From a virus (taxonomy: Duplodnaviria; Heunggongvirae; Uroviricota; Caudoviricetes): a DNA stretch of 18,695 nt. Below, in pieces: positions 12,001-15,000 of the stretch. Each line of letters opens with the position of its first letter. Within the stretch, counting starts at the first letter, position 1. Location: IMG/VR virus record IMGVR_UViG_2778261593_000006, positions 1-18,695 of that record. The stretch is one strand, 5' to 3'. Position numbers: made by a program.

Positions 12001-15000
12001 AATGTCAGCGGCACACGTACAAGTATTCCCGAAATCTCCTGAGCCACACGTTGCAGAATGAAAGTAAACAATTCCGTTTCCAGCACCAGCCCTTCTTCGC
12101 GGGCATTTTTCAGCTCCTGTGCGTCAGCCTGTGCTTTAGTGAGCCGGTAGCGTTCATAGTCAATGGTGCCGGGTTGTAAATCTGATTCTGCAGCCGCACG
12201 CGAATCTTCCAGTTCTTTGCGGAGCTTTTCATTTTCGATATCTTTTTCCCGCTGCGCATACCACTCAATGGCTTCTGCAGTATTGAACATGGTCTCGATA
12301 CCTTTGCCTCCCCCCGACAAAACTCTCAGCCCCTGACTTTGCCAGCCAGTGATTGTTCTGACATCGCACTCAAAAATTTCCGCCAGTTTCTTTTTGTTAA
12401 CCTTCACGGCACATATTCCTCACAAAAAGAAGAAAGGATCTCAAAACGCTTTTTTCAGCGAAAAATCACCGCTGCCAGATCCTTTCTTTTTTTTAAGAAA
12501 ACTCTATTAAACAACAGGTTAGCCAGAAGAAGAACGGATCTGCTTTTTCCCTGAAAATTTTCATAAATAGCGCGTTTTTGCGCGTCCCCAGACCCCCGGT
12601 ATTTCAGGTTCTGGAAAGGACCCGTGAAAATAGGAATGGTTTGCATATCGGATGCGCATAACATAACACGCATCATGGAAACAACATTCATTCACATTCC
12701 AGCAACATGATTTATTGCTTTCAACGAAACATCGAGTTAGGTTAGGAGCCATTGGCATCCTTTCGCCACCGGCATATCTTTAACGGATTTCCCTGCCGAT
12801 TTTTATTCCTGTGTTGCATTATCGCAACCCCTCACTGAAGGATCACTGTAATGCCTGTTTCTCACGAATCAGGCGAACATGCTGATCGCTAATTTTAATG
12901 CGTGAGTATTGTGGCTTGCAGTCAATCAGTGCGGTGATTAACCTGCCACCTTTAGTTTCCACAAATTTTTTTGCGGATAATCAATCACCACCTCCCTGGG
13001 AGGTGGTTTAGGGATAACAATAAAAACCCCGCAAAGCGGGGTTTTACATGAAATAAACATATTACTCAGTAGTACTGATAAAATCTAATCTATCTAAAGA
13101 CAAGAGAACACTGTCTTTGATGAAATCACTTATTTCATTAAATTTCTTTTCAGAATCTACATAATCGAATGTTTTTCTTCCATATCCATCGACAAATACT
13201 GTCAAATGTTCTTTTTCGATATATATTGAAATATCGCTATTTACCGAAACAAATGCTCTTGGATCATCGTCAATTACTGTCACTAAGGAAAAACGAACCC
13301 CTGCATGAAGCTCTACTATCAGATCTTCTGGCTCACAATAATTTCCACCTTGTGTTATATACACATATTCCTGTTGTTCACCAAGAATATTTATCCAAAA
13401 CTTACCAGAAACATCCAGTGAGGCTTTATAATTATCTATTAACTGCTTCGCTGCCTGCCTGATTGTTTGAACATATTCACTTTGTGTTTTTTTTAAAGCA
13501 TCTCGTTTGGCCTTGATATCATCGTATGTAACCATAATACTGATTCTCTCAGAAAAACATAAACGAGACATAATAATACCTCTATTGACACTCAATTTTA
13601 ATAGTTAGTATGGAATCAGTAATTACGTTGCAATCCCCTTAAAACAGGCATTATCGCAGCCCCTCACACAGAAGGGCTGCTGTAATGCCCGTTACTCAGT
13701 AACAACCACGCCTTCCGGCAATTTCATACCAGCAAATACCGGACAGCCAGGATGGCGATCATCTTCCGTTGCTTCCAGCATTGACTCACCAAACCACTCC
13801 GTTGTGGCGCGACCATCAGCTGCTTTGTAGTGGATCAAGTACTGGTTTTCGCCATCCGCATACTGCGCGCGGGCTTTAACCTCACCCCATTCATCACTGA
13901 TGCGCATCTCCACCAGTTGAGACAACTCAAACTTAAACGGAGCAGCATCAGCACCAATTACAATCGGTTTGTTTTCTGTTGTTTCCATCATCGTCTCCTG
14001 ATATCTAATCCCGCCGCCGCACCGGGCGGTGGCGCACCCTTCATTTTTCAGCAAAATATTCTGCTCTTACAGACGATCAGTTCTGCACACACCGTCGAAC
14101 GCCATCAATAAGCTGACAGACCTGAGACGCGGTATCGAAAAGCTGGCGCGCCTTATCCAGGCTGACGCATCCCACCAATAAAAAAGGCACCAGTATCGCT
14201 ACCAGTGCCCATTTCGCCGCCACTCGCGGTATTCTGTGTGTCCAGTGTTTTCGGCTCATGTCACCACCAACGCACAGCCCAAATCAGAACAGCGACCGCC
14301 ACAAGGCGAATTGCAAAGGCCGCAGCCCTTGTCAAATCAAGGCTCGCGGGAGTTTCCACTTCAATACCTTTCATAATGGACAACCTCAAAAAGAATCTTT
14401 TATACTTTCCCACGAGGATTTTCTCCGTACTCACTACTCACAATTTCCTCTTTGACGTGAAAACTAAAAACCCCGGACTGTTCCAGCAGCCGGGGTTTTG
14501 TTTTTTTATTTACCGCCCTGGGTGCGGCATCTGGCTATTTCATTCCTGGCTTTAGTGTCACCGCGACAGATACAACGAACCGTGTCACCCGCCAGCGTAG
14601 TGATGTAGGCCTCATCCGTTTTTTCCACCGAAATGCATGGTACATTTCCATCCAGGCAATACTCCACCTGGGCAGCAAGGTGAGTGTTGCGCGGGTAAAA
14701 TTCCAGGCGATACATATTCCCCAGAACATGCACTTCTTCAACCTGGCGCCCATCTTCCGTTACCGTGATTTTTTTCAGCGCGTACATACGTACCTCCGTT
14801 CTTTCGTTTTTTGAGCAATAAAAAAGCCGCTCATGGCGGCCCTGTATGTTTTGCAAGCTATCGCTTCAATTGAAAATGTGGGCCGTCTTTAAGCGTCCGC
14901 CAGTCCCCGCCCCATTCGATGACTGTTCCCAGCTCTGCGGCAGCCTGCTTAAATGCCTGCGCGATTTTCTCGTACAGAGGCCAGTCCCATGACACCTGGC

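Follow-up and report, generated by a model that had tools for sequence, protein, structure and literature searches.

The 18,695-nt stretch of phage DNA analysed here, IMG/VR record IMGVR_UViG_2778261593_000006 (the window, by which we mean its full length), is the late region of a Shiga toxin (Stx)-converting lambdoid prophage, as judged from its gene content, which includes the Shiga toxin A and B genes. Our subject is a pair of direct repeats, copies A and B, that lies in it between the lysis and packaging modules, and a conserved stem-loop of about 42 nt, here called HP, of which both repeats, by their sequence and predicted folding, are copies. The genes in this part of the window are all on the minus strand, which is the strand of late transcription. 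Read from right to left, the gene order is DNA methylase, Shiga toxin A and B, two holins, an M15 endolysin and spanin-like genes, then the repeat locus, and further leftward Nu1, the gpA terminase, gpW and a lambda-type portal. The features of the repeat locus, in the same direction, are these (ORF, open reading frame; IS, insertion sequence):

13692-13991, minus: 99-aa gene of phrog_1935 (a family label without a function), short form, ending ...VVTE* directly at copy B
13648-13691, minus: HP copy B, intact, consensus-like stem-loop; 65.7 bits with the covariance model
13606-13634, minus: candidate promoter hexamers of the moron, read from the sequence (TTGCAA at 13634-13629, 17-nt spacer, TACTAA at 13611-13606)
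13573-13601, minus: second candidate promoter of the moron, from a promoter scan
13062-13571, minus: AT-rich moron ORF, phrog_5091; 169 aa with the ATG at 13571 as start, 158 aa with that at 13538
13023-13045, minus: predicted intrinsic terminator of the moron, AAAACCCCGC-UUU-GCGGGGUUUU and then a U-run; 10 pairs, 6 of them G-C, from a scan
12980-13026, minus: relic of an IS200-family left end, the outer ~47 nt, including the IS terminator hairpin at 13007-12987
12843-12962, minus: decayed mini-gene of phrog_8025, a 39-codon ORF (family match E 2e-11), native upstream partner of copy A
12816-12857, minus: HP copy A, degenerate stem-loop; 62.5 bits with the covariance model

Two copies of one stem-loop

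Copy A (12816-12864) and copy B (13648-13698) stand in the same orientation, 832-834 nt apart. A MAFFT alignment of the two has 41 of its 49 aligned bases identical (84%), with a 2-nt gap in the loop, which agrees with the figure of about 85% given in a first-pass annotation of the window. The repeat search reports the similarity as two pairs, 12816-12835 with 13648-13667 at 95% and 12828-12864 with 13662-13698 at 76%, offset from each other by the 2-nt indel. Such similarity is far from what chance would give: the window has two matches to a degenerate pattern of HP as against none in 200 shuffles, and after the two copies the next best score of the covariance model in the window is 11.3 bits (E 0.38).

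Copy B has the form GCAUUA-CA-GCAGCCCUUC / GAGGGGCUGC-GA-UAAUGC, a two-part stem divided by a 2x2 internal loop. Its predicted folding energy is -37 kcal/mol on the minus strand (z -6.6) and -30.6 kcal/mol on the plus strand. The lower stem reaches 13646-13693 and so takes in part of the TAA stop codon of the 99-aa gene upstream, which at 13692-13694 lies within the base of the stem; the long imperfect hairpin and its overlap with this stop codon, both noticed in the first-pass annotation, are thus real features of copy B. In copy A the 5' arm reads GUGAUCC in place of GCAGCCC, and pairing survives only through G-U pairs and one compensated A-U pair. Its folding energy is -20 kcal/mol on the minus strand (z -3.4), while the plus strand folds like shuffled sequence (z +0.5); both copies therefore fold on the minus strand, copy A on that strand only. 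Among 12 otherwise near-identical carriers of the segment, copy A occurs as five variants, whereas copy B is consensus-like in all of them with only two loop variants, which for copy A is the pattern expected of a redundant relic. Several of these carriers are pig strains of enterotoxigenic or Shiga toxin-producing E. coli (ETEC/STEC).

The segment between the copies has 31-35% GC as compared with 43-53% in the flanks, and contains one ORF, preceded at the ATG at 13571 by the Shine-Dalgarno-like sequence AGAGG. The protein matches phrog_5091 only, a family of no assigned function; no Pfam family was found above threshold for the 158-aa ORF, PADLOC gave no match, and neither did a search of plasmids. 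It forms one 90% cluster in 5.8 billion proteins, is known only from Escherichia, always in the same context, and has one weak phage relative, in CharmingMan (32% identity). A single-sequence AlphaFold model (pLDDT 42) is unusable. The segment had been described as some 830 bp holding the AT-rich gene with its promoter and terminator; its size, composition and predicted terminator (13045-13023) stand, while promoter-like sites are no commoner in it than in shuffled sequence. The description was also incomplete, as the IS200 relic and the mini-gene lie inside the segment as well.

The IS200 relic abuts the moron terminator on one side and ends about 17 nt from the mini-gene on the other, and the remainder of the IS is absent. 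A sequence with 96-98% identity to it lies 80 nt before the annotated IS200/IS605 tnpA of strain CUPF09, which has it in 5 places, and it also matches copies on plasmids of about 100 kb, where an IS3 element is adjacent. Three independent contexts share the base at which the match stops, and each of them then continues with a different terminator hairpin. In IS200, a hairpin at nucleotides 12-34 of the left end is a terminator (PMC4513863). On account of the common match end and this published left-end terminator, 12980-13026 fits an IS200 left end.

The mini-gene was compared with the sequences of phi80 and of the prophage of strain ETEC1738. The homologue in phi80 (we take the HP-bearing prophage of strain DH5alpha to be this phage) is intact: its 35 codons come with a Shine-Dalgarno sequence and an ATG, and the end, ...ARLIRE-TAA, lies directly at HP. 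Relative to it, the version in the window has lost the ATG and the Shine-Dalgarno sequence, has suffered a 1-nt deletion, and has AAA where the TAA stop should be.

The 99-aa gene on the other side matches phrog_1935 with an E value of 1e-59 over profile positions 1-98 of 116; the 132-aa form of ETEC1738 covers positions 1-116. In many phages the phrog_1935 gene has 132-147 aa, its body being fused in frame to a phrog_8025-like C-terminal part that ends ...ARLIRE*, as in ETEC1738 (1809-2207 of locus L005) and in IMG/VR loci L190-L239. The form of 99/115 aa stops with ...VVTE* where the fused form reads on.

The stem-loop as a probable joint between modules

In lambdoid phages of E. coli, Salmonella and Yersinia, HP is present as a single copy where lysis genes give way to packaging genes. 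Its consensus, in the sense of the window's minus strand, is GCAUUACAGCAGCCCUUCAGUGAGGGGCUGCGAUAAUGC. In complete E. coli genomes it occurs at 553 places in 373 of 5,426 genomes; a carrying genome has one copy at the median and seven at most, so that HP is not a genome-wide repeat. Exactly one copy is present in 224 of 238 HP-bearing loci (1.6 Mb), and the covariance model detected no diverged extra copies in the window or in 845 kb of related phage DNA. HP is present in phiP27, cdtI, phi458, Fels-1 and Yersinia vB_YpM phages, and a pattern scan of IMG/VR found it in at least 120 contigs. A scan of bacteria with one genome per species gave a single match, in Salmonella enterica, and HP is accordingly not widespread beyond this phage group. 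At the approximately 240 loci examined, it was seen only at the lysis/packaging junction of phage DNA, and in every annotated case it lies between lysis or accessory genes and packaging genes, in the direction of late transcription. The neighbours on the packaging side vary, and include Nu1-type or other small terminases, an HNH endonuclease and ParB/Srx. No Rfam family matched either copy in a scan of 12000-14600 with E values up to 1, and the sequence was absent from the literature searched; HP thus appears to be undescribed.

Conservation of HP is very high, and extends to the unpaired CA/GA bases and the loop, the length of which ranges from 3 to 9 nt. A distinct class, GCATTACAGCAGCCCTTCACTCTAAGGGGTTGCTGTAATGT, is found at about 29 of 80 gene-anchored loci (L190-L239). 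In this class the CA/GA internal loop has turned into two Watson-Crick pairs, giving a continuous 17-bp stem, and it accompanies the fused, long form of phrog_1935.

The last small gene usually has its stop codon 0-10 nt ahead of HP, and genes from eight or more unrelated families end at this distance, among them phrog_1935, phrog_8025 and an Rz1-like lipoprotein. In the gene-anchored sample, in which loci were retrieved via the protein and not via the hairpin, HP follows 77 of 77 phrog_1935 genes. When the 250 nt on each side of 133 HP copies were clustered, 13 upstream and 19 downstream flank families were found to meet at HP in about 40 combinations. When loci of different families are compared, similarity reaches no more than 5 nt past the HP edge in 679 of 701 cases for the 3' side and in 580 of 648 for the 5' side. 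As this similarity stops at the hairpin edges, HP is an isolated island of homology. Furthermore, 39 pairs of loci have upstream flanks that are at least 98% identical next to unrelated downstream flanks, and 12 pairs show the converse; since these pairs share one flank only, they point to recent and recurrent exchange at HP.

Taken with the anatomy of the locus, this mosaic pattern makes it very probable that HP is a joint at which modules are exchanged by crossing-over. The basis for assigning it this role is that HP is the only stretch, of about 40 bp, that otherwise unrelated flanks have in common, and as such it would serve as the crossover point in ordinary phage homologous recombination of the Red/RecT type. 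Rad52-like phage recombinases are able to recombine short, diverged sequences (PMC3945230). The first-pass annotation had suggested a footprint of cassette insertion or exchange at a recombinogenic hairpin. The exchange part of this suggestion is upheld by the 13 by 19 flank families, the breaks within 5 nt and the 51 one-sided pairs, and the term 'recombinogenic hairpin' is better replaced by that of a sole shared sequence of about 40 bp open to ordinary homologous recombination. The insertion part does not hold, as copy A is native to the phrog_8025 gene.

At the 3' edge of HP in downstream family D9 (L114 and others), the last HP bases and the bases that follow make up a perfect Chi site, GCTGGTGG; in other flank families this edge carries near-Chi sequences, GCTGGTGT.

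A dedicated recombinase could be invoked in place of general homology, with the hairpins as attC-like or other structure-specific recombination sites and the segment between them as a mobile cassette. The hairpin is indeed imperfect and biased in its pairing toward one strand, and one hairpin at 'empty' loci as against two direct copies around an insert is the arrangement that such a system would produce. Yet among the 238 loci there is a single type of two-hairpin insert and there are no arrays, while accessory inserts of flank families D9, D11, D12 and D13 sit 3' of HP with no second hairpin. The insert has a predicted terminator, promoter-like sites and the relics of another gene and of an IS, and its copy A is decaying. 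The integron R box is missing: HP ends in GCATTA / TAATGC and not in core sites of the form RYYYAAC / GTTRRRY, and GTTACTC, which stands nearby, departs from GTTRRRY. In none of the relatives examined does the locus encode a recombinase. We therefore find an attC-like cassette highly improbable, and more generally HP is probably not a site-specific recombination site.

The likeness to integron attC sites is accordingly limited to the imperfect, strand-biased hairpin bordering an inserted gene and to the one-or-two-copy pattern; unlike integrons, the HP locus has no integrase, no R-box consensus and no array, its one cassette type has predicted transcription signals of its own, and the second junction of the insert is made by an IS relic.

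With HP as a joint between modules, the presence of two copies in the window calls for a separate explanation. Going by their upstream sequences, copies A and B are the 3' appendages of two different gene units and not a duplication made by an insertion, because copy A follows the phrog_8025 relic and copy B follows the phrog_1935 gene. The two upstream flanks fall into different families, U1 and U2. The first-pass view that the repeats are not a transposon target duplication is borne out. The moron and the duplicated HP are ordinary products of phage mosaicism.

The distance of only 834 nt between two direct copies might also suggest a local tandem duplication, in which the 3' end of the 99-aa gene would have been duplicated to give copy A when the moron was inserted. 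Copy A, however, is preceded by a phrog_8025 homologue that is closest to the free-standing gene of the phi80 type, and the upstream flanks belong to U1 and U2; local tandem duplication is refuted by these different sequences upstream of the two copies, and we attach next to no probability to it.

Equally improbable is the idea that the unit of about 830 bp is an element of the IS200/IS605 type, or one resembling a miniature inverted-repeat transposable element (MITE), with the hairpins as subterminal structures of its left and right ends. Elements of this kind do have similar, directly oriented subterminal hairpins and make no target duplication, the ORF of 158-169 aa is of transposase-like size, and there is a true IS200 end fragment inside the segment. 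On the other hand, the ORF has no match to the Y1 (HUH) TnpA transposase or to any other Pfam family, and loci without the insert keep one hairpin, where none would be expected if such an element were absent. Each phage has a single HP, always at the one junction, and the relic, only 47 nt long, has a hairpin of a different sequence. Compared directly with the IS200 left end (PMC4513863), window positions 12980-13026 are 96-98% identical to its outer part including the terminator hairpin; this relic of about 47 nt has neither tnpA nor a right end, and it is unrelated to the HP repeats.

We propose that two collinear phage genomes were joined out of register, which would have brought two HPs into one locus. 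One parent would have had the order phrog_1935 gene, HP, AT-rich moron, IS200, and the other the order phrog_8025 mini-gene, HP, Nu1. The join would have been a single illegitimate event associated with IS200, cutting off the start of the mini-gene; the distal unit, consisting of the mini-gene and copy A, would have become redundant by it and hence be decaying. Recombination between B and A would delete the moron and yield a single-HP arrangement like that of SC407. From the arrangement of the relics, such an IS200-associated join is moderately probable.

The comparison with related prophages bears on this proposal in several ways. Two-HP loci make up 12 of the 238, namely RM9088 and 11 others, all with the same insert at the same 834-nt spacing, and no other insert bracketed by two HPs was found among the HP-bearing loci; with one type of two-hairpin insert only, there is no cassette system of the kind first supposed. 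The moron is missing at the same locus in SC407, SK6988, ETEC1738 and the IMG/VR locus L079. In SC407, BLAST shows a single HP that has the left flank of the window, up to 12864, on one side and the right flank, from 13649 on, on the other, and L079 has the same single-HP join, so that relatives with one hairpin and no cassette do exist. Since the packaging-side flanks of SC407 and L079 are only 75-91% identical to the window, these two do not document an insertion or deletion that was both recent and precise. On the packaging side, the nearest relatives are SK6988 and ETEC1738 (98% identity), which lack 12636-13647; this indel starts at the edge of copy B and goes on to 12635, so that its other limit is not copy A. 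Thus, contrary to the first-pass annotation, the repeats do not delimit a cassette: at its far junction the AT-rich gene borders on the IS200 relic and not on a hairpin, and the indel relative to the closest relatives extends past copy A.

Possible functions of the stem-loop

In the late mRNA, HP would form an intercistronic or 3' stem-loop, which might block exonucleases, be a site of processing, or have to be opened by the terminating ribosome. The pattern of variation points in this direction. All 44 HP variants fold better in the sense strand, and one-sided changes mostly convert G-C to G-U pairs in that strand. Counting distinct variants in an unbiased sample, changes that keep a pair in the sense strand only account for 19 cells, versus 3-8 for the antisense strand only. 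Where the 5' arm is fixed, the 3' arm has C-to-T changes and none of the G-to-A changes that would break a sense pair, and pair 1-42 is seen as G-C, G-U and A-U. In one HP class the GA of the internal loop has become UG, which closes this loop. The unbiased sample is the gene-anchored one; an earlier, pattern-based sample was biased by the search pattern, and its shuffle statistics are not relied on. We infer a function at the RNA level with a confidence that falls somewhat short of an even chance.

Such a function might seem to be plain Rho-independent termination, each small gene unit carrying its own terminator and the repeat being simply two of them. The G+C-rich stem directly after stop codons agrees with this, as do the UGUUUUAA that follows copy B and the T-rich tail (5 or more T among the first 8 nt past the stem) of 17 of 133 copies. 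Against these stand the 116 of 133 copies with at most 3 T in the same 8 nt. Moreover, in several flank families the ribosome-binding site and start codon of the next gene lie 16-23 nt after HP, inside one operon, and base-for-base conservation across unrelated flanks is unlike that of ordinary terminators. We consider it unlikely that HP is a plain terminator.

It is likewise unlikely, and to a similar degree, that HP is a near-palindromic site in double-stranded DNA bound by a host or phage protein, its hairpin being incidental. Such a site would account for the very high conservation of positions that are unpaired in the hairpin, the consensus does fold on both strands, and covariation is not significant. 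The variation, however, is biased to pairing on the transcribed strand only, in the 19 versus 3-8 cells given above. In addition, a loop of 3-9 nt would alter the spacing of half-sites, and in one major HP class two Watson-Crick pairs have taken the place of the internal mismatch.

We return to the account in which HP is a module joint with a role in RNA and the two copies stem from an out-of-register join. As a whole, we put its probability at roughly 70%. Several observations weigh against it. Covariation in the unbiased, gene-anchored set is no better than in column shuffles, because HP is too conserved, and the consensus also folds on the other strand, at -23.2 as compared with -25.3 kcal/mol; it is for these two reasons that the RNA-level role is suggested only. 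A simple stability element explains poorly why conservation includes the unpaired CA/GA bases and the loop. The exact abutment of so many unrelated flanks on the HP edges has an unexplained origin. No single-HP relative was found in which both flanks are at least 97% identical, leaving a recent indel at HP undocumented, and no parent with the moron beside a complete IS200 was found, the moron being seen only in its present arrangement.

A more far-reaching and doubtful possibility is that HP is a dedicated, previously undescribed cis-acting RNA element of lambdoid late operons, a stem-loop with a part in processing, stability or termination-coupled events, which separates lysis and accessory gene expression from head-gene expression and which, through its conservation, became a universal crossover point between lysis and packaging modules. 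If this were true, HP would be a functional 'linker' of the kind postulated by the modular theory of phage evolution.

Related systems and neighbouring features

The modular theory associated with Susskind and Botstein includes such 'linker' or 'boundary' sequences, and boundary sequences were reportedly described for HK620 by Clark and colleagues in 2001. HP resembles them in being short, conserved and placed exactly at a module border, between unrelated flanks in many combinations. It differs in being a structured, strand-biased stem-loop located right after a stop codon, probably with a conserved function of its own. The flanking of HP by unrelated sequences at a module border is also what is seen in the homology-driven mosaicism attributed to Rad52-like recombinases (PMC3945230). 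The interest of the locus lies in HP more than in the repeat pair, as HP is a concrete example of a short conserved module-border sequence at which exchange clusters, and it bears on whether the joints of phage mosaics arise at special linkers or at random. In Stx phages, it marks a hotspot of accessory-gene accumulation just downstream of the stx-lysis region.

Among structured elements, repetitive extragenic palindromic (REP) sequences with the bacterial interspersed mosaic elements (BIMEs) that they make up, and the intercistronic RNase III hairpins of T7, are the natural comparisons. With these HP shares an imperfect palindrome of about 40 nt with an internal mismatch, a location in transcribed intergenic DNA, and a position 3' of a stop codon within an operon; its stems, of 6-11 and 10 bp, would suit an exonuclease barrier or an RNase III substrate. 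Unlike REP/BIME, HP is not dispersed in the chromosome (median one per carrying genome) and is found in phage DNA only, and its sequence is unrelated to E. coli REP. By their defining features, HP was rejected as an attC site, as an IS200/IS605 end, as a member of a dispersed REP family and as a canonical terminator.

In the moron concept of lambdoid phages, due to Hendrix and Juhala (reviewed in PMC3594210), an extra late-operon gene is present or absent among related phages at one place. On the sequence evidence the AT-rich gene fits this concept in its presence/absence pattern, its base composition (31-35% against 43-53% GC in the flanks) and its terminator; it has a predicted terminator and, as candidates, promoter-like sites. 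In contrast to other morons, it lies between two junction hairpins with the relic of an IS200 end at one edge.

The remaining features relevant to the locus are listed here.

16590-17555, minus: Shiga toxin A, 321 aa, Pfam RIP; upstream of the holins
16314-16577, minus: Shiga toxin B, 87 aa, Pfam SLT_beta; upstream of the holins
12636-12815, minus: flank of family D6 on the downstream side of copy A, continuing into the sequence upstream of Nu1; from BLAST and flank clustering
11859-12407, minus: Nu1-type small terminase, start of the packaging module; Pfam Phage_Nu1, E 7e-84

On the lysis side, the window has a region in common with phiP27, an Stx2e phage. On the packaging side, BLAST shows that the D6 flank (12636-12815) is missing from the closest relatives, SK6988 and ETEC1738, which have about 24-30 nt there instead. 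A 78-aa ORF at 12455-12691 (minus), between copy A and Nu1, is called as a hypothetical protein in RefSeq relatives. Its N-terminal part lies inside the 180 nt specific to D6 that the closest relatives lack, and it matches no family; the ORF may be spurious. Immediately before the Nu1 start, on its upstream side, there is an 18-nt inverted repeat (12424-12441 / 12477-12494; 94% complementary, with 35 nt between the arms), which reverse-strand BLAST matches show to be kept in all Nu1-type relatives examined. It may be part of the cos/terminase-binding region; a scan for the lambda-type cosN motif gave no meaningful match. On the plus strand at 14400-14507, antisense to the spanin region, sub-threshold Rfam matches to rnk_pseudo (28 bits, E 0.05) and sar RNA (20.5 bits, E 0.7) are probably due to chance.

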